From Caldisericota bacterium (GTDB lineage Bacteria; Caldisericota; JANLFM01), in the NCBI GenBank assembly GCA_024655865.1, contig JANLFM010000006.1:16183-80182 (forward strand): a DNA stretch of 64,000 bases. Reading direction: 5' to 3'. This document shows positions 21,718 to 47,870 of the stretch, in pieces. The notes under the pieces are model-generated. The model was not told the DNA's origin and did no database searches. It saw only the letters and a list, made by a program, of their open reading frames with translations. Numbering within the stretch: position 1 is the stretch's first letter; each line of letters opens with the position of its first letter. The position numbers and the translations under genes are program-made.

Positions 21718-21720
21718 TCG

Positions 21721-22149: not shown

Positions 22150-22153
22150 TTCT

Positions 22154-23923: not shown

Positions 23924-23925
23924 CT

Positions 23926-32750: not shown

Positions 32751-33857
32751 TTAAAAATTTAAAAATTTTCCGTTCTCGTAGATCACCTTTCCGTCCGCTT
32801 TCACCCTTGAGCCGTTCTTCATCTCCCGCACTATATCCCAGTGGATGGCTGACTCGTTCACTCCTCCAGATTCCGAATAGGAGTTCCCCAAAGCGAGATG
32901 CACGGTGCCCCCGATCTTTTCGTCGAAAAGGACGTTTTTGGTGCAGATCTGGATGCCGAAGTTCGTGCCGAAGGAGATTTCGCCGATCCTCCTGGCCCCG
33001 GGATCAATTTCCAAAGCGGCTTTTAGGCTCTCCTCTCCCTTTTCTGCAGAAAATTTCACCACTTCCCCGCGCTCGAACTCCAGGCGTATTCCCTCCACGG
33101 GCTTCCCGTAGAACTCGCTGGGGTATTCAAAGTAAATAAATCCCTCGGCGGAATCCTCAATTGGTCCCGTGAAGATCTCCCCGTCCGGCATATTGATTTT
33201 GCCGTCGCAGTTGATCCACTTTCTTCCTTTGACCTTCATCCTCAAGTCGAGATTGGGGCCCTCAAAGTGCAGCTCCTCCACCTGACCTAAGAACTCGGCC
33301 AAACGCTCCTGCTCCTCGTGCACTTTCTTCCAGTAGCCCACGGGATCATTTTCGTCGGGCATGCAGGCCTGGAACACGAACTCCTGATAATCGGAGAGGG
33401 ACATCCCGGCCTCCTGGGCCAGAGCATTCGTGGGGTAATCAAAGCCCACCCATTTGATGCCCCCTTCCTCCCTGGACTTCATGAACCTCTTCATAAGTGG
33501 TTCCAGAACCTTGCGCCTTCTTGCAATCCTTTTGGGATCAATGCCTGCAAGCTCCCTCAAATTTGCCGGGGCTCCGATCCCGATTTGGACGTCGAGGTGC
33601 TCTATTTCGAATTTTCTGATCTCCGAAACGAAATCCAGTTGCTCCAAAGTTGCGTAGCGGAAGAAGATCTCGTCCAGCCCGTCCAGTCCCAGGCGCAACA
33701 GGGGATGGCCTCCGTGGAGGAGAACCTCCCTGTAGATTGCGCGCACCAGGTCCGCGGCTTCAAGGGTAGAGTTAATGACCACAACCTCTCCTGGTTTTAC
33801 TTCTACGGAATAATCCACAAGTAATTGAGCCAACTTATCAATTCTGGGGTCGCTCAT
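32751..33857 (-). CDS. M29-family aminopeptidase (AmpS/PepS-like)
   Basis: Overall similarity to thermophilic aminopeptidase T/S, including 'ESGGVNESAIHWDIV'. It overlaps the upstream protease gene by 20 nt. Confidence 0.7.
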   Translation of the reverse strand: MSDPRIDKLAQLLVDYSVEVKPGEVVVINSTLEAADLVRAIYREVLLHGGHPLLRLGLDGLDEIFFRYATLEQLDFVSEIRKFEIEHLDVQIGIGAPANLRELAGIDPKRIARRRKVLEPLMKRFMKSREEGGIKWVGFDYPTNALAQEAGMSLSDYQEFVFQACMPDENDPVGYWKKVHEEQERLAEFLGQVEELHFEGPNLDLRMKVKGRKWINCDGKINMPDGEIFTGPIEDSAEGFIYFEYPSEFYGKPVEGIRLEFERGEVVKFSAEKGEESLKAALEIDPGARRIGEISFGTNFGIQICTKNVLFDEKIGGTVHLALGNSYSESGGVNESAIHWDIVREMKNGSRVKADGKVIYENGKFLNF

Positions 33858-34293
33858 TCTCTTCCTCTCTTTCTTGCACTTCTTTTATCAGGTTTTCCAG
33901 TATTTTAATTCCCTTTTCGGCAGAAGCCAGGGCTTCGGGTGAGAGACCCTCGCCAAAATCAAAATTGTACCCTCTTAGAGAAAGAAGAAAGGCTCGAGGT
34001 CGGCGATGATAGAGTTCCTCGAGCCAGAACAGGAATTGCTCCGGAAGGAGGTGGTGGGAAAGGAAGGAGGGCTTATTTTCCGGGAAAATTTCCCTCACCC
34101 GCACTTCCTCCCCTTCCAAAGCCGCATCTACGAATACGGCATAATCACAAAGCGCCAATTCCTCAAGGAGGTCTAAAGAAAGCTCCTGGAGGAACAACTT
34201 CTGGGCGGAAATTTCCGCTTTCTGGACGACATAATGGCCGATCCCGTCGTCCTGGCGATAAGGATTGCCGTAGGCGATTAAAAGGAGCCTAAT
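33838..34293 (-). CDS. Hydrogenase maturation endopeptidase (HoxW/FrhD-like), extended 5' of the track ORF
   Basis: The track ORF is 119 aa and starts at a TTG. The same frame is open 47 codons further upstream and encodes 'LLLIAYGNPYRQDDGIGHYVV', the conserved GxGNxxxxDDGxG metal-binding motif. No ATG, GTG or TTG lies in that stretch. The nearest plausible start is an ATT that overlaps the TAG stop of the large-subunit gene. Confidence 0.7.
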   Translation of the reverse strand: MRLLLIAYGNPYRQDDGIGHYVVQKAEISAQKLFLQELSLDLLEELALCDYAVFVDAALEGEEVRVREIFPENKPSFLSHHLLPEQFLFWLEELYHRRPRAFLLSLRGYNFDFGEGLSPEALASAEKGIKILENLIKEVQEREEENERPQN

Positions 34294-35713
34294 CTCTTTG
34301 AATCCTTTTTTCCAGTTTCCCCTCCTGGTTGTAGATTTCTACGATCAGGGGCATCTTCCCCACAGCATGAGTGGAGCAGGAGAGGCAGGGATCGTAACAG
34401 CGGATAGCTCCTTCCACGCGGTTGAGCATCCCTTCCTTGAGGTTTTTGCCGTCCACGAATCCCCTGGCCACGAGGTCCACAGCTTTGCTCATAGCCCAGT
34501 TGTTGTGCCCGGTAGCCACGATCAGGTTGGATTTCTTCATGGTCCCAGTTCCGTCCACCCAGTAATGGTGAATCAGGGTCCCCCGGGGTGCCTCGATCAC
34601 GCCGATCCCTTCCTCGTTTTTGGGGGTGCCGAAAGTGAAGACGTCCTGAGAAAGAATGTCGGGGTCTTTCAGGATCTCTATAGCACGCTCGGCGGCATAG
34701 AGGGTCTCAATCAAGCGCGCATAGTGGTAGTAAAGCGAGCTCTCCACGGGTTTTCCCCCGTTCACCTTTTTGAACTCCAGGAACTCCTTATGAGCCAGAG
34801 GAGTGGAGATGGAGTCCGCCACATTCAGGCGCCCCAGCGGTCCCACGCGGTAGAAACCCTCTTCCGGACCGAGCTCTTTGAAGAATGGGAACTTGAGGTA
34901 GGTCCAGTCTTCAACTTTCTCCCCGATGTATTTCAGGTAATCTTTGCCCTCGAACTCCCTGACGATCTTTCCCTCCTTATCCATGAAGCGCACAATGCCG
35001 TCATAGAGCTCTAAGGAACCGTCCTTTTTCACAAGCCCCATATACCCGGAGGGGAAGGAAGCAAATTGATTGCACTCCTCCTTGTGCTCGGAAATCCACT
35101 TTTTGGCGATCTCGATTCCCTCCTGAATGTACGGGATTCCCTCCTCCAGGAAAGAGAGCATCTCATCCCTGCGAGCTTCATCGAGGGCGGCGTTCACCCC
35201 TCCGGGAACGGCGAAGGTGGGGTGGATCCTTCTTCCCGCCGTAAGCTCAATGATTCTCTGCCCAAATTTGCGCAGCTTCACGGCCTTTAAGGCTATATCC
35301 GGGTTAGCCTGAATCAGCCCCACCACATTGCGCACGGCGGGGTCCGCATCCCACCCCAAAAGGAGGTCCGGGCCAGCCAGCTCAAAGAAGTGCATGGCGT
35401 GGGACTGGACAATCTGTCCCATGTGGACAAGCTCTCGCAGAAGTTTGGCCGGCCTGGGAATGTCCACGCCGATGACGGCGTCGCAGGCTTTGGCCGAGGC
35501 TAAATGGTGAGAGATGGGGCAGATGCCGCAGATGCGCTCGGTGATCATGGGCATCTCCGAGAAGGGCCTGCCCTCGGTGAATTTTTCATAACCGCGGTAC
35601 TGATCCACGTGGAAGTAGGTCTTTTCCACCTTTCCCTGATCGTCCAGGAAGATGGAAACCCTGGCGTGACCTTCAATTCTGGTAACTGGATTTATCGTAA
35701 TTTTTTCTCCCAT
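34289..35713 (-). CDS. Group-3 [NiFe] hydrogenase large subunit (HoxH/MvhA-like)
   Basis: N-terminal RICGICPISHHLA (L1) and C-terminal DPCLSCSTH (L2). A 24-aa tail after the His is the protease substrate. Confidence 0.9.
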   Translation of the reverse strand: MGEKITINPVTRIEGHARVSIFLDDQGKVEKTYFHVDQYRGYEKFTEGRPFSEMPMITERICGICPISHHLASAKACDAVIGVDIPRPAKLLRELVHMGQIVQSHAMHFFELAGPDLLLGWDADPAVRNVVGLIQANPDIALKAVKLRKFGQRIIELTAGRRIHPTFAVPGGVNAALDEARRDEMLSFLEEGIPYIQEGIEIAKKWISEHKEECNQFASFPSGYMGLVKKDGSLELYDGIVRFMDKEGKIVREFEGKDYLKYIGEKVEDWTYLKFPFFKELGPEEGFYRVGPLGRLNVADSISTPLAHKEFLEFKKVNGGKPVESSLYYHYARLIETLYAAERAIEILKDPDILSQDVFTFGTPKNEEGIGVIEAPRGTLIHHYWVDGTGTMKKSNLIVATGHNNWAMSKAVDLVARGFVDGKNLKEGMLNRVEGAIRCYDPCLSCSTHAVGKMPLIVEIYNQEGKLEKRIQRD

Positions 35714-35721
35714 AGTTCCTC

Positions 35722-36264
35722 CTAATCGTACTTCAGAAGCTCTTCTTTGAGCTCTGGGGTTTTCCCCTCCAGGATATCCTTGAGCACTTTATAGATAGCG
35801 TCCGCCGAGGGAGGGCAACCGGGAATGTAGAAGTCCACCTTTACCACTTCGTTCAGGGCCATGCACTTCTTGAGGTGTTTGCCAATTCCCGGACCCTGGG
35901 GGATCTTTCCCTCCACCGTGCTCTCAGTGTTTACATATCCTCTTTTTAAAAGCTCCTCGATGGGAATGTAGTTTCTCATGGTGTTGATCCCGCCGAAGAC
36001 CGCACAGTCCCCTAAAGCAACCAGGATCTTGCAGCGCTCGCGGAAGAGTTTCGCTACCTCCTCGTGGTGGTCGGTGGCCACTGCTCCCTCGAGCACCCCG
36101 ATATCCGTTCCGAAAGCGGGGACCTTAAGGTCGGTTATAGGTGTGGCGGTGATCACCAACCCCTCATTGATCAGCTCCACTAATCGCTCATCCATATCTA
36201 AGAGGGACATGTGGCAACCCGCACACCCCTCTAACCAGTCGCTCGCTAAGGTTATCTTCTTCAT
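35722..36264 (-). CDS. Group-3 [NiFe] hydrogenase small subunit (HoxY-like), proximal cluster only
   Basis: 180 aa carrying the GCAGC, GDCA and GCPP cysteine motifs. Confidence 0.85.
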   Translation of the reverse strand: MKKITLASDWLEGCAGCHMSLLDMDERLVELINEGLVITATPITDLKVPAFGTDIGVLEGAVATDHHEEVAKLFRERCKILVALGDCAVFGGINTMRNYIPIEELLKRGYVNTESTVEGKIPQGPGIGKHLKKCMALNEVVKVDFYIPGCPPSADAIYKVLKDILEGKTPELKEELLKYD

Positions 36265-36286
36265 GGCGTTCCTCCTGACCTTTGCC

Positions 36287-37939
36287 TTAAATTTTTAGAA
36301 GCCGAGAGGAGATCTCTTCCACGGTCAAGACACCCTCGGCAGGGGTAACTACTCTCTGGCGCACAACTTTTTTACCCTCTAAGGTGATAAAGGTTCCCTC
36401 ATCCTCCAGATACCAGGTAATGGGGATTAACAGGTCGGCTACGGATTTGAGTTCCGGGGTTTCAAAGGGAGTAAAGGCAACGATAAAATCCCCTGGGGAA
36501 CGGGCGGAGGAAATGTTTTCCCCGACATAAATTTTCACTTTTTCCTGGGGTACTTTATGTTCGATCCCCAACTCCTTAAGGGCCATAGTGTTAGCCTCGT
36601 AGGGTAAAAAGAGATATTTGAAGCCGGATTCGGTCTCTAATCTCTCACTGATCCCCTCGGGGAGGGAAGAGTAAACGGCAACAACCTTTTCCCCTTTTCT
36701 GGCCTCTCCCAGAGCGGTATCAATGTCTTTATATTCGTAAGAGAAATCCGTAATTCCAGAGAGGCTACCCGCTTCCACAGCAATCAGCCTGGCGTTCTGG
36801 GGGACGACCCTGCGCTTGATCATGGAGCCCACGACCCCGTAGCGCTCGTTCAAATCCACGCCCACTACGAGGTAGGTATCTGCATCCTCCAGGTCCTTTA
36901 AAGTGGCCGTTGATGGGATGGGAGGATTAACCTCGTTCAGAGCGAAAACCCTGTCTCCCAAAGCCGACTTAAAGGCTTGAAGGAGCTCCAGTGGCAGGCT
37001 CCCCTCCAAAAATACCGTTGCCGCTCCCTTTTTCTCGCTGATCACTTTGAAAGCCATCTCGGGGGAAATCTGGGTCCAGATTCCTCCTTCCTTTAACTTA
37101 GGAGCGTTGAGGCGGGGCCGGTCTTCATAAAGGGGAAGGTAGCGTCCGTTCTTGCACAACACTCCCTGGTTAATCGGTGAATCCCAATCCCCGTAAACCT
37201 TCAAAATGAAGTTCGCCCGCCTGTAAACCTCGATGCCGCAACCCACGGGGCAGCGATCGCAATTCGTCTTGATGACCTCCGCTTGCTCTTTCCTTCCCAG
37301 GTAGGAAGCCCTTTTATCCACCAGCGCTCCGGTGGGACAGACCTGGACACACAGTCCACAGGAAACGCAGGAAGACTGAGCAAACTGGTTATTCAGATCA
37401 ATGTTGATCAGGCTCTGGTAACCCCGGTTCTTTACTTCCAGCACGAAATGTCCCCCAAGTTCAGCGCAAGCCCGAGCGCAACGGCGGCAGAGCACGCAGC
37501 GGTTCTGATCTAGAAGGATGTACGGGTGAGAGACATCTACAGGATACTTATCCTCATAGGGAGGGAATTCAAAATGATCCAGACCGAATTTATATCCCAG
37601 GTCCTGGAGCTCGCAGTTTCCGCTGGACTCGCAGTACATGCAGTAGTGGTTGCGCTCCCCGAAAAGGAGCTGGAGTACCGTCATCCTCACTTCCTGGATT
37701 TCCGGAGTGGAGGTCTTTACTTCCATCCCGTCCGTAACATAGGTGGCGCAAGCCGGCTTCAAGGCTCCAGGTCCAGCTTCCACCACACACATGCGGCAGG
37801 CTCCATAGGGAAGTAACTTTTCGTGGTAACAAAGGGTGGGAATTTCAATACCCGCTTCCTTCGCCGCTTCCAGTATGGTCTTACCTTCTTCTACTTCAAT
37901 TTCTTTTCCGTCTATTTTCAGTCTCACTTTTCCCATCAT
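36287..37939 (-). CDS. NuoG/HoxU-like FeS subunit with a truncated molybdopterin-type domain
   Basis: 2Fe-2S motif (CYHEKLLPYGACRMC). His-ligated cluster (HYCMYCESSGNC). Two 4Fe-4S motifs (CVLCRRCARAC, CVSCGLCVQVCP). An MopB-type N-terminal cluster (CDRCPVGCGIE) follows. Confidence 0.8.
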   Translation of the reverse strand: MMGKVRLKIDGKEIEVEEGKTILEAAKEAGIEIPTLCYHEKLLPYGACRMCVVEAGPGALKPACATYVTDGMEVKTSTPEIQEVRMTVLQLLFGERNHYCMYCESSGNCELQDLGYKFGLDHFEFPPYEDKYPVDVSHPYILLDQNRCVLCRRCARACAELGGHFVLEVKNRGYQSLINIDLNNQFAQSSCVSCGLCVQVCPTGALVDKRASYLGRKEQAEVIKTNCDRCPVGCGIEVYRRANFILKVYGDWDSPINQGVLCKNGRYLPLYEDRPRLNAPKLKEGGIWTQISPEMAFKVISEKKGAATVFLEGSLPLELLQAFKSALGDRVFALNEVNPPIPSTATLKDLEDADTYLVVGVDLNERYGVVGSMIKRRVVPQNARLIAVEAGSLSGITDFSYEYKDIDTALGEARKGEKVVAVYSSLPEGISERLETESGFKYLFLPYEANTMALKELGIEHKVPQEKVKIYVGENISSARSPGDFIVAFTPFETPELKSVADLLIPITWYLEDEGTFITLEGKKVVRQRVVTPAEGVLTVEEISSRLLKI

Positions 37940-37951
37940 TTACCTCCTGAA

Positions 37952-39526
37952 TTATTGAACAAGGGGAAGGAATTCTTCCCGGAAGTTTTCCAAAGCAGAT
38001 TTCACAGGCATGATCAGAGATTGCCCCAGAGGACATAGTGAGGAGTACCACAAGGCTTCTGACAGCTTGACCATTGTATTCAGATCCTCCGCTTTCCCTT
38101 TTCTCTCCAGAAGGTGTCCGGAAATGCGGTATAACTCTCGCGTCCCGGAGCGACAAGGAGAGCACTGTCCACAGGACTCGTGACGGAAGAAATAGAGTAC
38201 TGAGTGCAACATTTTTGGGATGGAGGCTTCTTGACTCATCACCAAAATAGCGCCCGACCCGAGGACGGCTTTGTACTGCTTCAAGTTATCGAAATCCATG
38301 CGCACATTGAGGAGGGATTCCGGGAGGAAAACCCCTGCTGCCCCACCCACTAAGGCTGCTTTGAACTTTTTCCCTCCTTTAATGCCCCCTCCGTAGCCAA
38401 AAATAATTTCATAAAGCGTAGTTCCCATCTCAACTTCTATCAGGCCAGGAAAGTTCACGTCGCCTAAAATGGTGTACACCTTCGTTCCGGGACAGGACTC
38501 CGTACCCATAGTGCGGAACCAATCCGCTCCTTTTCTGATAATTGCGGGAATATTCGCTAAGGTCTCCACGTTGTTGATCACGGTGGGACTGCCAAAAAGG
38601 CCTACTACTGTGGGATAAGGGGGTTTAATGCGGGGGTTGCCCCTTTTGCCCTCCAGGGATTCCATGAGCGCGGTTTCCTCTCCGCAGACATAGGCGCCGG
38701 CCCCTTCTTTGATTTCCAGATTAAAGGAGAATCCGCTGCCCAAAATGTCTTCTCCTAAGAGCCCATATTTTCGGGCATCCTCGATGGCCTTGTGCATCCT
38801 GTGCAGGGAAAGAGCATACTCCCCTCTGATGTAGATATATCCTTTCCTGGCACCCACGGCGTAGCCCGCGATGATCAATCCTTCAATCAGTTTATGGGGG
38901 TCACCCTCCAGAATCAGCCTGTCCTTGAAGGTCCCGGGCTCCCCTTCGTCAGCGTTGCAGATGATGAATTTTTCCATAGCCGAGGCCTTGCGCGCTCCCT
39001 CCCATTTAATTCCTGTGGGGAATCCGGCTCCTCCTCTTCCTCTCAGGCCGGATTTCTTGACCTCGGCAATGACCTCATCCGGGGTCAGGGAGAGGGCTTT
39101 TTCCAGAGCAGTGTAACCATCTCGCGCCAGGTACTCCTCGATTTTCTCAGGATCGATTATACCTGAGTTCTCAAGGACCACCCTCTTTTGCTCCCTCATG
39201 GGGCCTATCAGGTCCCTTCTTACTGCCCTAACAACCTCTTCTTTTATGATCAGGTCCTGAACCGGACGGCCCTTGAGGAAATGCTCCTCCACGATCCGAG
39301 GACAGTCCTCAGGTTTCACCTTCCCGTAATATATGCGCTCTGGATAGACTGCCAGAACCACGCCCAGCCCGGTAACTCCCAGGGTTCCAGTTTCCAGAAC
39401 TTTAATTTCCTCCAAGAGGCCTCTCCGGGAAATCTCCTCTTTCAGTCTTTTTAAAACCTCCCAGGCTCCTGAGGCCACGCTTTCGATATCAATCGATACC
39501 AGGACATGACTGCGAGCTAATCTCAT
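37952..39526 (-). CDS. NuoF/HoxF-like NADH-binding flavoprotein subunit
   Basis: FMN motif (GRGGAGFPTG). N3 cluster (ESCGQCSPCRSG). The N-terminal thioredoxin-like domain lacks the usual 2Fe-2S cysteines. Confidence 0.85.
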   Translation of the reverse strand: MRLARSHVLVSIDIESVASGAWEVLKRLKEEISRRGLLEEIKVLETGTLGVTGLGVVLAVYPERIYYGKVKPEDCPRIVEEHFLKGRPVQDLIIKEEVVRAVRRDLIGPMREQKRVVLENSGIIDPEKIEEYLARDGYTALEKALSLTPDEVIAEVKKSGLRGRGGAGFPTGIKWEGARKASAMEKFIICNADEGEPGTFKDRLILEGDPHKLIEGLIIAGYAVGARKGYIYIRGEYALSLHRMHKAIEDARKYGLLGEDILGSGFSFNLEIKEGAGAYVCGEETALMESLEGKRGNPRIKPPYPTVVGLFGSPTVINNVETLANIPAIIRKGADWFRTMGTESCPGTKVYTILGDVNFPGLIEVEMGTTLYEIIFGYGGGIKGGKKFKAALVGGAAGVFLPESLLNVRMDFDNLKQYKAVLGSGAILVMSQEASIPKMLHSVLYFFRHESCGQCSPCRSGTRELYRISGHLLERKGKAEDLNTMVKLSEALWYSSLCPLGQSLIMPVKSALENFREEFLPLVQ

Positions 39527-39981
39527 TTTCCCCTCCGCAAATCATTAAGGACAGAACGAACTTTCTCCGGTGTCAGGTTTCCGTAGACCTCCTCGTTGAC
39601 CATCATCGCCGGAGCTACACCGCAGACCCCGAGGCAGGAGGATAATTCCAGGGTGAAAAGGCCATCCGGGGTGGTCTCTCCCACTTTTATGCCCAAAAAG
39701 TTGCTCACCGTATCAATAATTGACTCGGCGCCCACCAGATGGCAGGGAGGGGATTCACAGATGCGGATGATGTATTTCCCCCGGGGCTTCAGGCTGAACA
39801 TGGAATAGAAAGTGGCCACACTGCTCACAAAGCTCAAGGGAAGGGAAAGGTAATTTGCCGCCAGTTTCAAATCCTCTTCCTCGAGATAGTTCTGAGGGTT
39901 GCTCCTCTGAAGAGCATGGAGCAGGGATAAGAGGTTTTCCTTTCTGGGCTCAAACCTTTTCAGGATTCTCACCTTTTCCAT
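39523..39981 (-). CDS. NuoE/HoxE-like [2Fe-2S] subunit
   Basis: Motifs CESPPCH and CLGVCGVAP. Confidence 0.8.
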   Translation of the reverse strand: MEKVRILKRFEPRKENLLSLLHALQRSNPQNYLEEEDLKLAANYLSLPLSFVSSVATFYSMFSLKPRGKYIIRICESPPCHLVGAESIIDTVSNFLGIKVGETTPDGLFTLELSSCLGVCGVAPAMMVNEEVYGNLTPEKVRSVLNDLRRGK

Positions 39982-40038
39982 AAAGGTCCCTCTTTCCCGG
40001 ATGATCTATTAACCGTTAATTGCTTTTTTCCGGTCATC

Positions 40039-43000
40039 TCAACCTCCTAAAGGAATTCTCACTTTTTCCTTTTCCAATTTTTCGCTCACGACCTCCTTGC
40101 CCCTATCGCACTTCAGGCACCTCTTCGATTCCTCAAGGGCCTCCTGAAGAAGAATCCCCTTATTCACTTCGATGAATGATTTAATTCTCTCCTCAACCAT
40201 TTCCAGAGCTGGAGTTTTCCTGGGGATCACCTTCAGGTATTCCTCCTCGTTGAAAGAGGTCTCTACCACTTCCCTCCTGGGGAAGGGGAATTTTCCTTCA
40301 TACCCGAAGTGTCTGTCAATGGAGAGGGCGGCCTTCCTTCCCTGGCCCACAGCTTCCACAACGGTCGCGGGGCCCAGCACAGCGTCACCGCCTGCGAAGA
40401 CTCCGGTTAAACTCGTCTCCAGGGTATCCTTGTCAACCTTTATCGTTCCGTCCCTATTGGTCTCCAATTCCTCAGCAAATCCTGAAAGCTCTGGCCTCTG
40501 CCCGAGGCACAGGAGCACGAAATCCGCCTCTATTTCGAATTCCGTTCCCTCTTTGGGCACCGGTCTCCTTCTTCCGCTCTTATCGAACCCCTGGAATTCC
40601 ATCTGCACGCACCTTATCTTTTCCACTCTTGTTGATCCGGTGAATTCTATGGGGTTCGTCAGGAAGTAGAATTTGATGCCTTCTTCGATGGCTTCCTCCA
40701 CTTCCGTAGCCTGCGCGGGCATTTCCTCCCTGGACCTTCTGTAGATTACGGAAACTTCGCTGGCCTTAAGCCTTAAGGCAGTTCGGGCCGCATCCATGGC
40801 GGTTGAGCCACCACCGACCACTGCCACCCTCTTCCCCTTGAGGTCCATTTTCTTCCCCAGGTTCACTTCGCGCAGGAAATCAATGCCGCCTGTAATCCCT
40901 TCCAGCTCCTCGCCTTTGACGTTTAACTTTTCTGAGCGGTGGGCCCCTATGCTGATAAAGACAGCGTCAAAGCCCATCTCCTTCAGCTCCTGAAGGCTCG
41001 AAACCGGAGAATTAAGTCTCAGCTCCACCCCTGATTCCACAATCCTGGCGATCTCCTCATTCAGGACATCCTTGGGGAGTCGGTAGTCCGGGATGCCCAC
41101 GCGCATCATTCCCCCGGGCACAGGAAGGGACTCGAACACTACGGGCCTGTAGCCCAGCCTGGTAAGGAAGTAAGCGCAGGAAAGTCCCGCAGGGCCAGCA
41201 CCGACAATGGCCACTTTTTCCTTCCTAAGTTCTAAGGGAGGGTTGAATTGCACGTCGTTTTCTCTGGCCCAATCCGCAAAGAGCCTCTTTACCTCCCTGA
41301 TAGCGATGGGTTCATCGAATTTGCCCCTCTCGCACGGTCTTTCACAGAATGCGGGACAGACCCTGGCGCACACGCTGGGGAAAGGATTGTTCTCCATGTG
41401 CACCAGGAAAGCCTCTTTGAGTCTTCCCTCCGTCATATGGGCGAGGTAGCGAGGGACATCCACACCCGCGGGACAGGCATTGGTGCAGGGGGCATAGAAA
41501 AGCGAAGCGCACACTCCGGCGCGACACTTCTTGTAAAGAACGTGTTCCAGAAACTCTTCAGGGAAATATTTTAAACCGGTAAGGACCGGGTTGGGGGCTG
41601 TCTGCCCCAGAGCGCACATAGAGGAGCTCTTTATCTGTTTTCCCAGTTTTTCCAAAAGAGTTAGGTCCTCCAGCGTGCCCTGCCCGTTCGTGATTCTGTC
41701 GAGAATGCTGTACATTTGCTTCAGGCCCACCCTGCAGGGGGTGCACTGGCCACAGGATTCCGACATCGTGAACTCCACGAAGAACTTGGCCATGTTCACC
41801 ATACAGTTGTCCTCGTCGAGGACGATCATTCCTGCAGAGCCGATTATGGAACCCGTCTTCTCTATTTCCTTATAATCCACAGGCAGGTTCAAAAATTCGC
41901 TCGTGATGTAACCGCCTGAAGGGCCACCCATCTGGATGGCCTTGAATCTTTTCCCTTTGGGGATCCCGCCGCCAATATCGAAGATTACCTCCCCCAGAGT
42001 CAATCCGAAGGGAACCTCAATCAAACCGGTATTGTTCACCTTTCCTGAGAGCGCGAAGAGTTTAGTGCCCTTGCTGTTCTCCGTGCCCATGGAGGCGAAC
42101 CACTCTCCCCCGTTTAAAATGATGTGCCTGATGTTGGCCAGAGTTTCCACGTTGTTGACCAGCGTGGGTTTTCCCCAAACACCCTTCTGGGCAGGATATG
42201 GAGGCTTGAAGCGCGGCGTGCCTCTTTTCCCCTCAAGGGAATTTAAAAGAGCGGTTTCCTCTCCAGCGACGAATGCTCCGGCTCCCATTCTCAGCTCTAT
42301 ATCAAAATCAAACCCTGTCTCTAAGATGTTTTTCCCCAGTAAACCGTATTTCCTTGCCTGTTCCAGGGCAATTTCCAGCCTCTTGATGGCCAGAGGATAC
42401 TCGGCGCGGATGTAGATATATCCGTGGTGGGCGCCTATGGTGTAGCCGGCAATAATCATCCCTTCGATTACCGCATGAGGATCGCCTTCGAGGATTGCCC
42501 TGTCTTTGAAAGCCCCAGGGTCTCCTTCATCGGCATTGCAGACGACGTATTTTTCATCGCCCTTCGCTTCCCGTGTGAATTTCCATTTCAGGCCCGTGGG
42601 AAAACCGGCGCCTCCTCTTCCTACTAATTTCGACTTGATCAGTTCCTCGATCACCTTTTCAGGCGTCATCTCTGACATGACTTTGGCTAAGGCCTCGTAC
42701 CCTCCGTAGGCGATATACTCCTCGATGTTTTCCGGGTCGATTCTGCCGCAGTTTTTAAGGACAACCTTCTCTTGCTTTTCGAAGAAGGGGATCTTCTTTT
42801 TTTCCTCGACGATCTTCGCGGCCTCAGGGGCAGTCCATAAAAGCCTTTTTACGGGTCTTCCCTTGAGGAAGTGCTCTTCAACTATTTGGGGAATGTCCTC
42901 GTCCTTGAGCTTTACGTAAAAGGAACCCTCGGGGTAGACAATCATCACTGGGCCCAGCTGACAGGGACCCATGCACCCGGTTCCCACTATGTTGACTTCC

Positions 43001-43113
43001 TCTTGAAGTTGCCTCCTCTCTAATTCCTCCTCCAGCTTCTTCTTGAACTCCAGGCTGTGCGAGGAGAGGCAGTTTGCTCCCGTACAGATGAGAACGTCCA
43101 GTCTTTTCCTCAT
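40039..43113 (-). CDS. NuoF-like flavoprotein fused to a 2x[4Fe-4S] ferredoxin and a GltD/SudA-like NAD(P)H FAD oxidoreductase (1024 aa)
   Basis: N-terminal thioredoxin-like 2Fe-2S (CTGANC..GCMGPC). FMN motif (GRGGAGFPTG) and N3 cluster (ESCGQCTPCRVG). Two Cys4 clusters follow. Then come Rossmann motifs (VAIVGAGPAGLSCAY and VAVVGGGSTAMDAA). Confidence 0.8.
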   Translation of the reverse strand: MRKRLDVLICTGANCLSSHSLEFKKKLEEELERRQLQEEVNIVGTGCMGPCQLGPVMIVYPEGSFYVKLKDEDIPQIVEEHFLKGRPVKRLLWTAPEAAKIVEEKKKIPFFEKQEKVVLKNCGRIDPENIEEYIAYGGYEALAKVMSEMTPEKVIEELIKSKLVGRGGAGFPTGLKWKFTREAKGDEKYVVCNADEGDPGAFKDRAILEGDPHAVIEGMIIAGYTIGAHHGYIYIRAEYPLAIKRLEIALEQARKYGLLGKNILETGFDFDIELRMGAGAFVAGEETALLNSLEGKRGTPRFKPPYPAQKGVWGKPTLVNNVETLANIRHIILNGGEWFASMGTENSKGTKLFALSGKVNNTGLIEVPFGLTLGEVIFDIGGGIPKGKRFKAIQMGGPSGGYITSEFLNLPVDYKEIEKTGSIIGSAGMIVLDEDNCMVNMAKFFVEFTMSESCGQCTPCRVGLKQMYSILDRITNGQGTLEDLTLLEKLGKQIKSSSMCALGQTAPNPVLTGLKYFPEEFLEHVLYKKCRAGVCASLFYAPCTNACPAGVDVPRYLAHMTEGRLKEAFLVHMENNPFPSVCARVCPAFCERPCERGKFDEPIAIREVKRLFADWARENDVQFNPPLELRKEKVAIVGAGPAGLSCAYFLTRLGYRPVVFESLPVPGGMMRVGIPDYRLPKDVLNEEIARIVESGVELRLNSPVSSLQELKEMGFDAVFISIGAHRSEKLNVKGEELEGITGGIDFLREVNLGKKMDLKGKRVAVVGGGSTAMDAARTALRLKASEVSVIYRRSREEMPAQATEVEEAIEEGIKFYFLTNPIEFTGSTRVEKIRCVQMEFQGFDKSGRRRPVPKEGTEFEIEADFVLLCLGQRPELSGFAEELETNRDGTIKVDKDTLETSLTGVFAGGDAVLGPATVVEAVGQGRKAALSIDRHFGYEGKFPFPRREVVETSFNEEEYLKVIPRKTPALEMVEERIKSFIEVNKGILLQEALEESKRCLKCDRGKEVVSEKLEKEKVRIPLGG

Positions 43114-43124
43114 TATTGGGCTCC

Positions 43125-43487
43125 TTATTCTTCAACCTGAATTACGTACTCGGAGACCACCACCCCATTCACTATGTGTTCTGCCACTATCCTTTTCGCC
43201 ACTTCCGGCGTAACCATTCCATAGACTATCCCGGGTTTTCCAGACTCCTCCACGATCACCACCGGTTCCTGGGAAGCCAGCCCTTTTTCTCCGGTCTGCG
43301 TCACGAGGACGTCTGTGAGATTTCTATTTTCAATTTCCGACAAAAAGGCCCTTAAGGTCTCCCTTGCTCCGGCCGCAATGCCGCTGGTTCCCATTCCAAT
43401 GATGATTTTTATTCTTGCTTTTCCCTCTCTCAGGCTCAGTTCCTGTTGAACCCTTTCTCTTATTTTTCTCAGCTCTTCCAGCTTCAT
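43125..43487 (-). CDS. HndB-like thioredoxin-fold protein, cysteine-free
   Basis: 120 aa with the fold of a NuoF N-terminal domain (..IIIGMGTSGIAAG..) and no Cys. It sits between the NuoE-like and NuoF-like genes as HndB does in Hnd operons. Confidence 0.55.
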   Translation of the reverse strand: MKLEELRKIRERVQQELSLREGKARIKIIIGMGTSGIAAGARETLRAFLSEIENRNLTDVLVTQTGEKGLASQEPVVIVEESGKPGIVYGMVTPEVAKRIVAEHIVNGVVVSEYVIQVEE

Positions 43488-43552
43488 TCTCCATCCTCCG
43501 TATTTTTATTTTTTATCTTGTAAGTTTTGAGGGATCAGATCAAAGGTAAGGC

Positions 43553-44086
43553 TCAGCGATCGAGCTCCCTTTCCCGGATCCCCTTTATGACATTGACCAC
43601 CTTGAGGGGAGTCAACCTGCCGTAAATCTCCTCGTTAACCATCATGGTTGGGGCTAAACCACAGGCACCAAAACAGCGAGCAGTAGACAGGGTGAAGAGC
43701 CTGTCCTCCGTGGTCTCCCCTACATCGATCTTGAGCTCCTTACAGACGGCCTTCAAAACGTCAGCCGCTCCCTTTACGTGACAGGCAGTCCCCAGGCAGA
43801 GGTTTATGACGTACTTCCCTACGGGCTGTGTGCGGAAAAAATGGTAAAACGTGATCACTCCCAGGATCTGGGATGGGGGAACATGCAGCTCTCTGGAAAT
43901 GAAATATTGCACTTCCCTGGGAAGGTATCCAAAAAGTGACTGGGCTTTATAGAGAACGTTGAGCAAGGCGCCTTTAGAGTTTTTGTGTTCCGCTATGAAT
44001 TCCCTCAGTTCCTGGTACTGCTCGTTCTCAGGAATAACAATCTGCTCGTTCATTGAAACCTCCTGTTCAGTTGAGGGCTTTTTCAA
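43553..44086 (-). CDS. NuoE/HndA-like [2Fe-2S] subunit
   Basis: Motifs CLGTACHVKG and CFGACGLAP. Confidence 0.8.
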   Translation of the reverse strand: MKKPSTEQEVSMNEQIVIPENEQYQELREFIAEHKNSKGALLNVLYKAQSLFGYLPREVQYFISRELHVPPSQILGVITFYHFFRTQPVGKYVINLCLGTACHVKGAADVLKAVCKELKIDVGETTEDRLFTLSTARCFGACGLAPTMMVNEEIYGRLTPLKVVNVIKGIRERELDR

Positions 44087-44165
44087 TTAGCCAATATTTT
44101 ATCAAATATTTTACTCAGGATTACTTTATTTAAAATGCTTCCTGAATTCAAGGCAAATATTTTTC

Positions 44166-44726
44166 TTAATCTTGTTCAGGAAAGATCCTCTCCAGCTCCT
44201 TTACTTTCTCATTTATGAATTCTCTCAAAAACTTAATCACCGAGGGATGAGAAAGGGGCACATCATTTAAAATCGCTTTTATTTCTCGAGTGTCCAGAAC
44301 CAGTTCCCTTCCGTTTTTTAAATAGCGGAAAAGGATGTCCGCTCTTTCTGAAGCGTAAACCAGGGCCAGTATGGTCCCGCGCAAATCCCCCAGCGGGGGA
44401 AGGTCAATATGGCTGCGCGGAAATTGTGCTTTTATCCTCGTGCCTTTCCCGGCCTGGGATTTGACCTTTAAATCACCTCCGGTGGAGAGGGCCGTCTGCT
44501 TCAAAAGGGGAATTCCCAGGCCCACTTTCTTTCCGGACTTGGTGGTGAAAAAGGGATCTTCCACCATTTTCAGAGTCTCTTCATCCATACCCCGGCCGTT
44601 ATCTTCCACCGTGATCTCCAGAAGATCCTCCTTGATTCGTTCTCTGATCTCTACGGAGATCAAGCTGGCTCCTGCGCTAATCGAGTTCTGCACAATATCC
44701 AGAACGTGGAGAAGGAGTTCATCCAT
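44166..44726 (-). CDS. Stand-alone HATPase_c (histidine-kinase-like ATPase) protein
   Basis: N box (ITVEDNGRGMD) and G box (GLGIPL) with no HisKA or sensor domain. Part of the putative sensory [FeFe]-hydrogenase module. Confidence 0.6.
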   Translation of the reverse strand: MDELLLHVLDIVQNSISAGASLISVEIRERIKEDLLEITVEDNGRGMDEETLKMVEDPFFTTKSGKKVGLGIPLLKQTALSTGGDLKVKSQAGKGTRIKAQFPRSHIDLPPLGDLRGTILALVYASERADILFRYLKNGRELVLDTREIKAILNDVPLSHPSVIKFLREFINEKVKELERIFPEQD

Positions 44727-45510
44727 TTCCTAAGGGTTCCCTCCCGATTTCTAAGCGGATTATCCCTCTTCCCCCTTTCCCCTCCAGAGCGTACCTCAAT
44801 TCTTCAAGGGTGGGGCTTTCCATCTGGAGTACCGTTACCGCCCTGCCGATTTCCTCGGGATAGTGGGCATCGGAAAAGGATACCAGAGGATACCCCAAGA
44901 GGTCGCGCGCTGAGGGATTCTTTTTCAAAAAGGCGTGGGAGACCTCAAGGGCAGGAAAGTGCAGTTCAGGAGGGATAAATCCCAACTGCCCGGCAAGGCT
45001 GAAGTGAAAGGAGTCCACATGTGCGGGAATAACCAGTCCTCCCATTTTTGTAACAAGGCGCGAGAGGCCCTCCAAAGAAATCGCCACGGAGTTCAGAAGA
45101 AGCTTCTCCTCAAAATAGATCACGTTTTCCTCCTCGTCCACGGCCACCTGGTCTCCAAAGTGCTGAGGGTCGTTCTTCACCTGCGGGAGACGGTCGTAAA
45201 TTTCCTTTCCAAAAAGTTCAAAGGAGGAGGGGTCATCAAAATAAACGAGGAGGTGCGCCTCCTCCTGAGTTTGCACTTCTATTCCATAAAAGAAGGGCAG
45301 GCTCCTCTTCCGCGCCATTTTTCCCAGCGTTACGCTGTTTAAAGTTGCGTTGTGGTCTGTGATGGCCACTAAATTTATCCCCATTCCCACTACACTTTCC
45401 AGGATGCGCGAGGGGGACATTTTCAGGCTTCCGCAGGGGGAAAGCGTGGAGTGGATATGAAGGTCAGCGCGGAATTTTTCCACCTTGAAGCAACTGGAAA
45501 ATTTTTCCAC
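44719..45510 (-). CDS. PHP-domain phosphoesterase
   Basis: 'ADLHIHSTLSPCGS' matches the N-terminal PHP metal-binding motif. Confidence 0.7.
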   Translation of the reverse strand: MEKFSSCFKVEKFRADLHIHSTLSPCGSLKMSPSRILESVVGMGINLVAITDHNATLNSVTLGKMARKRSLPFFYGIEVQTQEEAHLLVYFDDPSSFELFGKEIYDRLPQVKNDPQHFGDQVAVDEEENVIYFEEKLLLNSVAISLEGLSRLVTKMGGLVIPAHVDSFHFSLAGQLGFIPPELHFPALEVSHAFLKKNPSARDLLGYPLVSFSDAHYPEEIGRAVTVLQMESPTLEELRYALEGKGGRGIIRLEIGREPLGNG

Positions 45511-45811
45511 TCAGGGTAAAGGCATCATCCGGACTTCCTAAAAGCCAGATCCCCTCTTCCTCAGCTTTCTTCATCACATCCTCTTCCGGAAGTAGCTCCT
45601 GAGCGATGATTATTGCGGGAATTTCCTTAAGCGCTGCTACGGCCACGATGTTCACGTGCCTTTGCACGGTAATCCACAGGGCCCCAGAAGGAGCGGAACC
45701 AATCACCAGGGAAAGGAGGTCCCCAGTATATCCCTTATCTATGGAAGCTTCTTTCCCGGTGGCATACACCTTTAAATTTAAATGGTCGATTATTTCTTTA
45801 ATACTCACCAT
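45464..45811 (-). CDS. DRTGG-domain protein
   Basis: 'YTGDLLS' lies in a roughly 110-aa stand-alone DRTGG-like fold. Confidence 0.55.
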   Translation of the reverse strand: MVSIKEIIDHLNLKVYATGKEASIDKGYTGDLLSLVIGSAPSGALWITVQRHVNIVAVAALKEIPAIIIAQELLPEEDVMKKAEEEGIWLLGSPDDAFTLSGKIFQLLQGGKIPR

Positions 45812-45863
45812 TTTCAGCTACACCTCGCTTCTAATTTAGCCCGGGGGCAAACTAACCCTTCTT

Positions 45864-47075
45864 TTAGAGGAAGATGCAGTCCTCAAGAGAAGCTTCGCCC
45901 TTGGCAACGTCCTCTGCCAGTGCCCTGCAAGTGGGAGCACCACATGACCCGCAGTCTATTTTGGGAAGTTTCTCGTAGAACTTATCAATCATCTTCAGGA
46001 GCTTGGCGGCGGCTTCCATATTTTCGGAGAGAAAGTACTGCGGTCTTGGTTGGATGGGCATAGTTAAATAGAGAAAATCCGCCATATCCTCCCTGGAAAG
46101 AGGGGAAATCGCATTTTCCCTCTTTCGCTCTTCCTGCTCCAGACGGTAAAGGTTCAAAAAGGAGTCCCTCTCAGGGAGGAGGATGCCCCCCACGCACCCA
46201 TTGGGACAGGAGCGGCCTTCAATCAGGTCAAGGGCGGGCACCTTTTCCATCTCGAGCTCTTTTAAAAATCTGACCACGTTGGTGATCCCGTCAATCGCCA
46301 GCACCCTTAAGGGAGAGAGGAATTCCTTTTCCCCGCCAATTCTGCCAATGGCTACCCCGCTCGGACCCGAAAGGTGTACTTTCCCCGAGGTAGTCTCATT
46401 GACCCTGAGGATTTCCCGATAGAGGATATTCGCTGCGATCACACCATCGTAAGGGGATTTCTCGATCCCCTGGGGGTTCCTGATGGCAGTAATTTTGGCG
46501 GGGCAGGGTGCAAGATAGAAAAGCCCCGAATTTTTTCCTAACTTACGCCTGACTGTGGCCCCCAAAATGTCCCTGGGAGTATTCAAGGGGGAAAGATGTG
46601 AGAGCAGATCAGGAAACCTGACCTGCATCAGCCTGATCACGGCCGGGCAGGCGACGGAAATCAAAGGTTTCTTCACATTCCCCTTTGTCAGGATGCGGCG
46701 CGTTTCCTCTAAATAGGCTTCCTCGCCTATCCCCTCCTCGTAGACCTCCTGGAACCCCAGGGCAAAGATTCGGCCCATTACTTCGGATGTGCTTAATCCC
46801 AGGAAATCCAGGGAGAGAAAGGCGGGAGGAATCACCAGCACTCTGTATTCGTAGTGAGAGAGAACCGAAAGGTCATCGGTTAAAACCTCGTTCGCTCCCC
46901 AGGGGCAGAAGCGCACGCAATCGCCGCAATCAATGCACTTTAAATCCTTGATTTGAGCTAAACGGTTTCTCACCCTGATGGCCTCTGTGGGACAATTGCG
47001 CAGGCAATGGGTACAGCCCTTGCACACGTCCTCCTTTATGCGCAGTGAATGGAAATAAAGGTTAAACGCTGGCAT
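45864..47075 (-). CDS. [FeFe]-hydrogenase-like protein, putative sensory HydS-type (2x[4Fe-4S] + H-domain)
   Basis: N-terminus has CKGCTHCLRNCP and CIDCGDCVRFCP. The H-cluster motifs are variant. L1 is 'SVACPAV', where the first Cys of TSCCP is replaced by Ala. L2 is 'APCPAK' (PCxxK). L3 is 'EGRSCPNGCVGG'. An extra C-terminal CGSCGAPTC motif is present. Confidence 0.75.
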   Translation of the reverse strand: MPAFNLYFHSLRIKEDVCKGCTHCLRNCPTEAIRVRNRLAQIKDLKCIDCGDCVRFCPWGANEVLTDDLSVLSHYEYRVLVIPPAFLSLDFLGLSTSEVMGRIFALGFQEVYEEGIGEEAYLEETRRILTKGNVKKPLISVACPAVIRLMQVRFPDLLSHLSPLNTPRDILGATVRRKLGKNSGLFYLAPCPAKITAIRNPQGIEKSPYDGVIAANILYREILRVNETTSGKVHLSGPSGVAIGRIGGEKEFLSPLRVLAIDGITNVVRFLKELEMEKVPALDLIEGRSCPNGCVGGILLPERDSFLNLYRLEQEERKRENAISPLSREDMADFLYLTMPIQPRPQYFLSENMEAAAKLLKMIDKFYEKLPKIDCGSCGAPTCRALAEDVAKGEASLEDCIFL

Positions 47076-47502
47076 TGGGAATATCTATTTCAAAAATCAC
47101 TTTCGTGCCCTTTCCGGGGTGGCTCTCAATAAGCAATCGGTCGGCATTTTTCTTGATATTGGGTAAGCCCATCCCTGATCCAAAACCCATTTCCCGAATC
47201 TCCGGAGGAGCAGTGGAGTATCCCTCCTTCATGGCTAACTCCACGTCCTCGATCCCTGGTCCGCGGTCCGTGGCGGTAACCCTGATCATTTTCGGATAGA
47301 CTTCAAGTAAGAGCTCTCCTTTTTCCGTATACACGATGATGTTCATTTCCGCTTCGTATGAGGCGATGGCTGTCCTTTTTATAACCTGGGGATTGATCCC
47401 CATGCGCTTTAAAGCCTCCTTTATGTCTGAAGAAGCCTCACCCCCGTGCTCAAAGTCTCGCCCCTGAATCTGGTATGTGTGGCTGTAAAGCAGGTCGTTC
47501 AA
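47062..47502 (-). CDS. RsbW-like HATPase_c serine kinase / anti-sigma-type ATPase
   Basis: 146 aa with N box (ATDRGPGIED) and G box (GFGSGMGL). Confidence 0.65.
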   Translation of the reverse strand: MNDLLYSHTYQIQGRDFEHGGEASSDIKEALKRMGINPQVIKRTAIASYEAEMNIIVYTEKGELLLEVYPKMIRVTATDRGPGIEDVELAMKEGYSTAPPEIREMGFGSGMGLPNIKKNADRLLIESHPGKGTKVIFEIDIPNASV

Positions 47503-47870
47503 GGTCCCCTGGTTATTCGGGCCCCTTCGATTCCAGCTTTATAGAGCAGCCCGCAGGTAACGAAAACGATGAGCTCCGTGGATACTACGATTACTCCTTT
47601 TTCCTCACCCAGGGTTATCGTTTCCCAGGGGACGCGTTTCCCTCGGGCCACGATTACCATGGGAATGTCCATGAGCACTGCTGTGCGCACAATTTGAGGG
47701 TTAGTTATTCCTGTTATCAGGACCACGTCCCTGTTCTCTACTTCCACCAGGGCCAGTACGTCGCTTAATAAGTCAGCGGCGAATCCCCTTTTAATTTCCA
47801 CTTCATCCAGCAGGGATTCTCCGGATAGGACTTTGCCCTTAATTAAGCTCACAATTTCTCGCGCTCTCAT
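47499..47870 (-). CDS. DRTGG-domain protein (second copy)
   Basis: Paralog of 45464..45811 (..VVLITGITN..). Confidence 0.55.
   Translation of the reverse strand: MRAREIVSLIKGKVLSGESLLDEVEIKRGFAADLLSDVLALVEVENRDVVLITGITNPQIVRTAVLMDIPMVIVARGKRVPWETITLGEEKGVIVVSTELIVFVTCGLLYKAGIEGARITRGP

Follow-up and report, generated by a model that had tools for sequence, protein, structure and literature searches.

An integrated NAD(P)H-linked [NiFe] hydrogenase of the Bfu family is the probable product of a 15-gene array in a Caldisericota bacterium

In a 64-kb stretch of DNA from a Caldisericota bacterium (contig JANLFM010000006.1 of assembly GCA_024655865.1; the whole stretch is called the window, and all positions are counted within it), we found a minus-strand array of 15 genes that runs from 47870 to 33838, with neighboring genes overlapping or separated by at most 79 bp. 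Genes were called from a list of open reading frames (ORFs) together with Pfam and NCBIfam scans, and these calls confirmed the gene order that had been given in an earlier note made from the DNA letters. The array is probably one co-transcribed unit that encodes a [NiFe] hydrogenase of the Bfu (HydABCSL) family, soluble and linked to pyridine nucleotides, and its control proteins, and we give this reading, an integrated NAD(P)H-linked NiFe-Bfu hydrogenase predicted from sequence, a probability of roughly 0.6. The collinear 15-gene order is present in three further assemblies (L002, a Caldisericota metagenome-assembled genome (MAG), L062 and L064) with amino-acid identities of 62–100%; because the gene order recurs in these assemblies, the array is neither a product of chance nor an assembly artifact.

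Among solved structures, the catalytic end of the array is nearest to NiFe-HydABCSL of Acetomicrobium mobile, a purified electron-bifurcating hydrogenase that also has HisK and HydP genes in its operon (PDB 7T2R/7T30; Feng et al., 2022, PMC8880783). Over its full length the large subunit shares 56% identity with A. mobile HydL (7T2R_D; 587 bits), and both HoxH (5XF9_D, 425 bits) and MvhA score below this; the best solved match of the small subunit, again over its full length, is A. mobile HydS (7T2R_E). As for a group 3 [NiFe] dimer, all four cysteines that bind the NiFe site are present and the small subunit has a single cluster, and a 25-residue C-terminal extension (the cleavable tail) follows the DPCLSCSTH motif of the large subunit. 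The dimer had been described as Hox-like in the earlier note; it is closest to the A. mobile subunits and is not a plain Hox dimer. Also shared with the A. mobile system are a NuoG-like HydA that lacks an H-cluster, a HydB-type flavoprotein with the N-terminal [2Fe-2S] domain, B1 and the B2-site ligands, a HydC, and a protease and HisK/HydP-type genes in the operon. As A. mobile NiFe-HydABCSL has already been characterized, the combination of a NuoEFG-type module and a group 3 NiFe dimer with kinase- and phosphatase-like genes is not a new category. The two systems differ in host (Caldisericota for the window, Synergistota for A. mobile) and in their flavoproteins: the HydB-type protein of the window has an NfnA/GltD FAD-NADPH domain (FAD, flavin adenine dinucleotide) and not a ferredoxin-type B3/B4 domain, and the window has an inserted, cluster-depleted NuoE/NuoF pair, as well as genes for a group D HydS and for two DRTGG proteins.

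The NuoG-like protein, which we call HydA', has Fer2_4, NADH-G_4Fe-4S_3, two Fer4 and Molybdop_Fe4S4 domains and a weak Molybdopterin remnant, and there is no match to Fe_hyd_lg_C. Its cysteine motifs fit one [2Fe-2S] cluster (A1) and three [4Fe-4S] clusters (A2–A4), and a fifth Fe-S site lies in the Molybdop_Fe4S4 domain. Residues 3–301 align to A. mobile HydA (7T2R_A, 268 bits), with formate dehydrogenase alpha subunits as the next best matches, and the HoxU model of NCBIfam covers residues 5–223. Unlike the group 3d hydrogenase HoxEFUYH, which has a short HoxU of about 240 amino acids and a single HoxEF, the window has a NuoG-like protein of 550 amino acids and two NuoE/NuoF sets. We rejected the idea that HydA' is the catalytically active remnant of a formate dehydrogenase, because it has no Molydop_binding domain and most of the molybdopterin domain is missing (compare the FdhA of L001).

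At the end of the array is the gene for a hydrogenase maturation endopeptidase. The earlier note had proposed a HoxW-like protease here, and the function stands; however, the ORF that begins at TTG 34197 is incomplete, and the full 151 amino acids need a start at ATT 34293. From TTG 34197 the product has 119 amino acids, matches positions 40–143 of the NCBIfam hydrog_prot model and has no GNxxRxDDGxG motif, whereas the in-frame sequence upstream of this codon, read from ATT 34293, encodes LLLIAYGNPYRQDDGIG. The ATT (34289–34293) overlaps the stop codon of the large subunit (gATTAGg), and no ATG, GTG or TTG is found at the true 5' end. This ATT is kept in L002, L062 and L064, and in more distant relatives there is a TTG or ATG at exactly this position. 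A pseudogenized protease was rejected, since four assemblies keep the ATT start and have an intact N-terminal motif. Owing to the ATT start, ORF callers would shorten the protease to 119 amino acids.

We found two flavoprotein modules between the regulatory genes and this catalytic cassette. In the first module, NuoE1 has T. kivui HydC, NfnC and A. mobile HydC as its best solved matches and contains all four cysteines of cluster C1. It is followed by an HndB-like protein, for which there is a weak NCBIfam match to 2Fe-2S ferredoxin (41 bits); cysteine is absent from this protein and from its orthologues in 15 related loci. Next comes a fusion in which residues 4–587 match A. mobile HydB (768 bits) and residues 541–958 match StnA and Caldicellulosiruptor NfnA (NfnA residues 105–520). 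The Complex1_51K, SLBB and NADH_4Fe-4S domains of the fusion (Pfam) correspond to the flavin mononucleotide (FMN)/NADH site and the B1 cluster. To audit the cluster ligands, we used the ligand assignments of A. mobile HydB and pairwise alignments. The fusion keeps the cysteines of the N-terminal [2Fe-2S] cluster B5 (C10, C15, C47 and C51) and the ligands of B1 and the B2 site (C437, H523, C529 and C534, corresponding to A. mobile Cys438, His525, Cys531 and Cys536). The ferredoxin-type end domain with two CxxCxxCxxxCP motifs (B3/B4) is absent, and an NfnA/GltD-type Fer4_20 domain is present instead. In the GltD part we found the conserved Lys and a GGGSTA motif (GxGxxA, NADP-type).

Bifurcating-type flavin signatures have been given as A/E-x-M, Phe and GGPSG (Losey 2020, PMC7311640). 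The fusion has AFK, GAGAF and GGPSG, which is three of four bifurcating-type positions, with Lys at the position of the signature Met; the Phe/Tyr position was mapped by us to GAGA(F/Y), without an exact match to the numbering of that paper. The search for the GGPSG pattern across loci was noisy, and relatives were judged on the AFM and F/Y positions alone. An additional site for NADPH on a bifurcating-type core is a reasonable prediction, because the GltD part resembles the FAD domain of NfnA/NfnB and has an NADP-type GxGxxA motif, and the hint of an NADPH site and a bifurcating enzyme in the earlier note was a reasonable one. The full-length fusion architecture occurs in about a dozen of the best 150 matches in a representative library clustered at 50% identity.

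The GltD part has counterparts in two kinds of described enzyme. NfnABC and StnABC (PDB 9N5U, 8OH5; PMC7483475, PMC11829005) have a GxGxxA FAD domain with its own [4Fe-4S] sites and conserved Lys and a BfuBC core, as in the window; in those enzymes, in contrast, BfuA carries the FAD domain as an insertion, with the A clusters as the path to B1, while in the window the domain is appended to BfuB, and the window locus ends in a hydrogenase. In the trimeric [FeFe] hydrogenase of Vallitalea guaymasensis L81, HydB continues after the FMN/NADH domain into GltD in place of the two-[4Fe-4S] domain, as in our fusion, and the GltD domain was read as a second NAD(P)H site on the basis of annotation only (PMC6163223). 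The V. guaymasensis enzyme differs from the window locus in having an [FeFe] catalytic subunit and in lacking both NiFe genes and a second NuoEF pair.

In the second module, NuoE2 has NfnC and HydC as its best solved matches, contains the four cluster cysteines and is always paired with NuoF2 in relatives. NuoF2 has Complex1_51K, SLBB and NADH_4Fe-4S domains (Pfam) and aligns to A. mobile HydB residues 2–524 (563 bits), stopping before the end domain. All of its N-terminal cysteines are replaced, Ser and Leu stand at the positions of Cys438 and Cys476, there are no B2 ligands (no His/Cys/Cys), and the signatures TFK, GAGAY and GGAAG match none of the four bifurcating-type positions. In these respects (FMN and B1 only, Thr/Lys, Tyr, no GGPSG and no C-terminal ferredoxin domain) NuoF2 resembles the non-bifurcating HydAB, Hox and FdsABG modules (PMC7311640; PDB 5XF9, 6TG9). 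Unlike them, it retains an N-terminal thioredoxin-like domain lacking Cys, is nearest in sequence to bifurcating HydB and is mostly found beside a full BfuB. The loss of all bifurcation-associated clusters from this NuoF beside the NiFe genes, and their retention in the fusion, had escaped the earlier note. The Cys-less NuoF2 subfamily is present in at least four phyla (Caldisericota, Thermodesulfobacteriota, Bipolaricaulota and Aminicenantes) at 59–88% identity, and comprises more than 120 clusters at 61% identity or higher, all with intact ORFs and including the cultured Dictyoglomus thermophilum; we rejected a decaying duplicate on this conservation. NuoE2F2 stand alone in L057 and Dictyoglomus and precede [FeFe] HydA or FdhA in L058, L001 and L041. 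A NuoF with non-bifurcating signatures together with a BfuB with bifurcating signatures is also found upstream of the cassette in L012, L098 and L128. NuoE2F2 may even bifurcate, since the minimal requirements are still open: NfnB has Zn at the B2 and B5 sites, the minimal bifurcation site is FMN-B1-C1, and bifurcation has been reported in a 2026 preprint for cyanobacterial HoxEFUYH.

To see how the parts of the array are combined elsewhere, we searched the window proteins by tblastn against two sets of loci, 52 from genomes, retrieved with the fusion, and 79 from metagenomes, retrieved with the NuoG-like protein, and counted the flavoproteins upstream of the cassette in the 59 usable metagenomic loci that hold it. 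The cassette is alone, with no flavoprotein gene upstream, in 25 of the 59 loci, and it also occurs alone in genomes of Dictyoglomaceae and Caldisericia. The fusion is directly upstream with no second NuoF in 17/59, an unfused HydB of the A. mobile type in 12/59, and NuoE2F2 as the only flavoprotein in 2/59 (L063 and L065), while the fusion and a second NuoF are both beside the cassette in 3/59. Lone cassettes (L053–L056, L059–L061, L066–L090 and others) often occur with HypA/B and HypF and have no NuoE or NuoF within 10 kb, so that the gene for their flavoprotein partner would lie at another site, and the partner may also serve other enzymes.

The front end of the array is portable as well. 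The block of DRTGG, ATPase, DRTGG, PHP, ATPase/NuoE1, HndB-like and BfuB genes precedes [FeFe] HydA in L004, L015 and L058 and a full formate dehydrogenase in L001 and L006, and in L008 (an Aquificota MAG, 6.6–22.3 kb) the block, with a NuoF-GltD fusion as its BfuB, lies inside a complex I operon, between nuoE and nuoB/C/D/G/H...L. All parts of the array are kept in a different order in L012 (Bipolaricaulota), and in L001 the fusion and NuoE2F2 precede formate dehydrogenase alone. Since the same front end precedes [FeFe] HydA, formate dehydrogenase, nuo genes or the NiFe cassette, it is not [FeFe]-specific, and an [FeFe]-specific regulatory module was rejected because the DRTGG/ATPase/PHP set is also found with Fdh, Nuo and NiFe partners. 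The accessory set travels with the Bfu flavoprotein core whatever the catalytic partner. The earlier note had described the locus as an FeFe/NiFe hybrid; its gene content and order are as described, but the regulatory and Hnd-type genes do not mark an [FeFe] enzyme, and the hybrid is one of the arrangements that Bfu modules can take and not a NiFe enzyme with an added [FeFe] regulatory unit. We also noticed that in L058 (GCA_017880035.1, approximately 4.4–21.6 kb) two catalytic heads occur with two flavoprotein pairs. The genes there are those of the accessory set, NuoE1, the HndB-like protein, a 554-amino-acid HydB without an end domain, NuoE2 and NuoF2, together with [FeFe] HydA, HydG/E/F, a full FdhA and a formate transporter.

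Within the front end of the window, the 403-amino-acid protein has the architecture of a group D (M2e) sensory hydrogenase with all four H-cluster cysteines, which bears out the earlier proposal of a HydS-like [FeFe] sensor. Its motifs are SVACP, APCPAK and EGRSCPNGCVGG, the C-terminal Cx2Cx4Cx16C motif is exact (C375-x2-C378-x4-C383-x16-C400), and there is no PAS domain. The Cx2Cx4Cx16C motif and the group D features are common to 120/120 of its nearest relatives, and the position of the proton-transfer residue Cys299, a cysteine that group D lacks, is Ala. The AlphaFold2 model has a predicted local distance difference test score (pLDDT) of 94.8, and the best 50 fold matches in the PDB are all [FeFe] hydrogenases (TM-scores of 0.65–0.71, normalized to query length). 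Firmicutes members are about 40% identical to it, and an NCBI protein from a MAG of a "Caldiserica bacterium" is 100% identical, which assigns the window to Caldisericota. We regard the protein as a putative sensory-type [FeFe] hydrogenase of group D that, as modeled, is structurally intact. It resembles TamHydS of Thermoanaerobacter mathranii (PMC8163306) in its two N-terminal [4Fe-4S] clusters, its H-domain with four cluster cysteines, its C-terminal Cx2Cx4Cx16C motif, its lack of Cys299 and of a PAS domain, and a flanking gene for a histidine-kinase-like ATPase. The TamHydS gene precedes those of a trimeric group A [FeFe] hydrogenase; in contrast, the partner in the window is a NiFe enzyme and the partner in sister Caldisericota loci is formate dehydrogenase. 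In our sample of NiFe loci, only the window's own clade has HydS. In three Caldisericota relatives of HydS (P0254, P0262 and P0267) the L2 motif of the H-cluster is ATYPCK, not (S/A)PCPAK, and the ligand cysteine is shifted by two positions.

The small genes around HydS are likewise conserved. Orthologues of the first DRTGG gene stand at the same position in L001–L003, L007–L013, L062, L064, L097, L101 and L104, the position of the second DRTGG gene is conserved in related loci, and the PHP gene adjoins DRTGG and ATPase genes in at least 15 loci. The best NCBIfam match of the first ATPase (47062..47502) is the anti-sigma F factor SpoIIAB (45 bits, below the cut-off). The second ATPase and NuoE1 are in swapped order in several relatives.

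In the mechanism that we favor, H2 would be split or made at the NiFe site of a portable cassette that consists of HydA' with its five Fe-S sites, the small and large subunits and the endopeptidase, and electrons from the NiFe site would reach a flavoprotein by way of the cluster in the small subunit and those in HydA'. NuoE1 and the fusion would form a bifurcating-type BfuBC core (FMN/NADH, B1, B2 site, N-terminal cluster and C1), with an NfnA-like two-cluster FAD domain that binds NADP(H) in the place where ferredoxin normally docks on BfuB. NuoE2 and NuoF2 would form a pared-down, NADH-only module with FMN, B1 and C1 and non-bifurcating signatures. From synteny, we infer that both flavoprotein modules can dock on HydA', and the most likely outcome would be two enzyme forms or one mixed assembly, so arranged that H2 and NADH exchange electrons directly through one module and H2, NADH and NADPH (possibly also ferredoxin) exchange them through the bifurcating-type core. 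The group D HydS would use its H-cluster and its C-terminal cluster to signal H2 to the DRTGG, GHKL-ATPase and PHP proteins, and together these would tune the enzyme to the level of H2. As no DNA-binding protein is encoded within the array, the control proteins may act on the enzyme itself or on an unlinked regulator. The genes, their homology and synteny and the patterns of cofactor ligands were observed; how the subunits pair, which substrates they use, in which direction they work and how they are regulated are predictions.

Several observations weigh against an integrated enzyme of this kind. The C-terminal 250 or so residues of HydA' (302–550) have no detectable match to A. mobile HydA (7T2R_A), the weak Molybdopterin remnant being the one signal there in the sequence and Pfam comparisons; HydA' has 550 amino acids as compared to 692 in A. 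mobile, and the match is limited to about the first 300 residues. Evidence for the pairing of either flavoprotein with HydA' comes only from gene adjacency in other genomes. True bifurcation with ferredoxin by the fusion is doubtful, because the B3/B4 ferredoxin-type domain, to which the Bfu definition (PMC9304861) and the A. mobile model assign ferredoxin reduction, is missing and the signature Met is replaced by Lys. For the sensing part, no hydE, hydF or hydG, which are needed for the HydS H-cluster, was found in the 64-kb window, and the Met353 position of HydS is Ala, whereas it is Ser or Thr in group D (97/120 relatives); Ala is found there in just 4/120 relatives, all of them 84–100% identical to the window protein. 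For the single transcript, a promoter and terminator scan of 32.5–49 kb gave counts at or below the shuffled expectation, and the sole convincing terminator is upstream of the IS200 gene, so the scan is uninformative about operon boundaries.

The gene order at the NiFe cassette would also fit two independent enzymes that happen to be neighbors. NuoE2F2 directly adjoin HydA' in the window, as they do in L063 and L065, and NuoE2, NuoF2, HydA' and the small and large subunits could form a non-bifurcating, NADH-dependent [NiFe] hydrogenase like Hox or FdsABG, in line with their FMN, B1 and C1 alone and their non-bifurcating signatures. NuoE1, the HndB-like protein and the fusion would then be a free-standing, Nfn-like transhydrogenase linking NADH, NADPH and perhaps ferredoxin; BfuA-less Bfu enzymes (Type 4) have been proposed (PMC9304861), and in L001 the fusion has no obvious BfuA of its own. 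However, the fusion is the only flavoprotein beside a BfuA-type gene in 17 metagenomic loci and in L004, L006 and L015, and because it is the sole flavoprotein beside a NiFe cassette, an [FeFe] HydA or an FdhA in those loci, we expect that it normally works with a BfuA. The fusion is also nearer to A. mobile HydB than NuoF2 is (768 versus 563 bits), and both modules are kept together across at least four phyla despite reshuffled genes. We consider two separate enzymes unlikely, and we consider it less likely again that all redox subunits are joined in one complex. In such a complex HydA' and the small and large subunits would be wired to NuoE2F2 and BfuBC at once, with a low-potential branch ending in the NfnB-like FAD, coupling of H2, NADH and NADPH (with or without ferredoxin), maybe two bifurcation-competent flavins in series, and a post-translational switch by the group D sensor through the DRTGG, GHKL and PHP proteins.

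The surroundings of the array raise the further question of whether its parts came together recently. Upstream are an IS200-type transposase and a 5'-nucleotidase gene, and downstream are genes for an M29 aminopeptidase and an SLH protein. The IS200/Y1 transposase is directly upstream of the array in the window and at the matching place in L002 (80% identity), the NuoF2 N-terminal domain and the HndB-like protein have no cysteines, the protease has no canonical start codon, and the cassette is mostly solitary in relatives (25/59). These features would be expected if an IS200-associated event had juxtaposed the genes and NuoE2F2, the HndB-like protein or HydS were a decaying remnant next to an otherwise ordinary NAD-linked NiFe hydrogenase. 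We regard this as very improbable: the Cys-less NuoF2 subfamily is conserved with intact ORFs in at least four phyla, Cys-less HndB-like proteins are kept in 15 loci, HydS keeps all its cluster ligands and has a confident hydrogenase fold, the ATT start of the protease is conserved, and four assemblies keep the array collinear at identities as low as 62%.

With an integrated NiFe-Bfu hydrogenase as the preferred reading, three features look new: a GltD-type end domain on the bifurcating-type flavoprotein of a NiFe locus, a conserved second NuoE/NuoF pair, and a group D HydS with a NiFe enzyme. In a literature search we found no description of a NiFe-Bfu with a GltD-extended BfuB, with dual flavoproteins, or with a group D HydS linked to the NiFe enzyme, and the sole mention found of a GltD-extended HydB was the genome note on the [FeFe] enzyme. 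Six NiFe-Bfu members were counted in a 2022 census, in which a C-terminal, ferredoxin-type 2x[4Fe-4S] domain was part of the definition of BfuB (IPR017896; PMC9304861). Fusion-bearing NiFe loci are far commoner than this in metagenomes, and they may have been missed because that definition demands the ferredoxin-type domain. In many anaerobes the redox balance is set by electron-bifurcating hydrogenases, and how Bfu enzymes work is still under debate; the natural swap of the presumed ferredoxin-binding domain for an NADPH-binding flavin domain would allow the end point of the low-potential branch to be tested directly. The occurrence in several phyla of a cluster-stripped flavoprotein beside a full one suggests one hydrogenase with two coupling modes, or a larger assembly. 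The link of an [FeFe]-type H2 sensor to NiFe and formate dehydrogenase enzymes widens the proposed role of group D hydrogenases, and the comparison of loci assigns the DRTGG/ATPase/PHP set to the Bfu core and not to [FeFe] enzymes.

Table 1. Features of the array, in the order of the minus strand, and of other parts of the window.
Feature	Position	Strand	Length (amino acids)	Remarks
IS200/Y1 transposase	47905-48567	minus		34 bp upstream of the first gene of the array
DRTGG-domain protein	47499..47870	minus	123	Pfam DRTGG, 25.3 bits, at cut-off; first array gene
Stand-alone GHKL ATPase	47062..47502	minus	146	Pfam HATPase_c and HATPase_c_2; no HisKA
Putative sensory [FeFe] hydrogenase HydS, group D (M2e)	45864..47075	minus	403	2x Fer4, Fe_hyd_lg_C, PF04060
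Second DRTGG / HPr-kinase-N-like protein	45464..45811	minus	115	Hpr_kinase_N 29.5 bits, DRTGG 23.8 bits
PHP-family phosphoesterase	44719..45510	minus	263	Pfam PHP and PHP_C
Second GHKL ATPase	44166..44726	minus	186	Pfam HATPase_c, 63.7 bits
NuoE1, BfuC/HydC-like [2Fe-2S] subunit	43553..44086	minus	177	Pfam 2Fe-2S_thioredx, 171 bits
Cys-less thioredoxin-like (HndB/HydD-like) protein	43125..43487	minus	120	No Pfam match
BfuB/HydB fused to NfnA/GltD-like FAD-NADPH domain	40039..43113	minus	1024	NuoF and GltD fusion
NuoE2, HydC-like [2Fe-2S] subunit	39523..39981	minus	152	Pfam 2Fe-2S_thioredx, 160 bits
NuoF2, cluster-depleted HydB paralogue	37952..39526	minus	524	FMN and B1 cluster alone
NuoG-like BfuA/HydA'	36287..37939	minus	550	Without H-cluster and without pterin-binding domain
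[NiFe] small subunit	35722..36264	minus	180	Pfam Oxidored_q6; single proximal cluster
[NiFe] large subunit, group 3	34289..35713	minus	474	Motifs RICGICPISH and DPCLSCSTH
Hydrogenase maturation endopeptidase	33838..34293	minus	151	Length if the start is ATT 34293
Membrane-type cluster	19213-27188	minus		NuoH-like, 391-amino-acid NuoD/NiFe-large-like, three Mrp/NuoL-type antiporter subunits
Large GAF/PAS histidine kinase	6461-9997			Follows the Hyp/RnfC-like genes
HypF, HypD, HypE and RnfC-like protein	642-6426	minus		About 28 kb from the NiFe structural genes
ORF	61845-63797	minus	650	No Pfam match at E <= 1e-8

Elsewhere in the window, no [FeFe] HydA or HndD catalytic subunit is detectable anywhere in the 64 kb, as the earlier note had found, which sets the locus apart from HndABCD. 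Scans of the entire window with Rfam and for tRNA genes gave no matches. The gene content of the membrane-type cluster (Table 1) suggests a group 4 hydrogenase or a related complex. Between HypF and HypD there is room for HypC.

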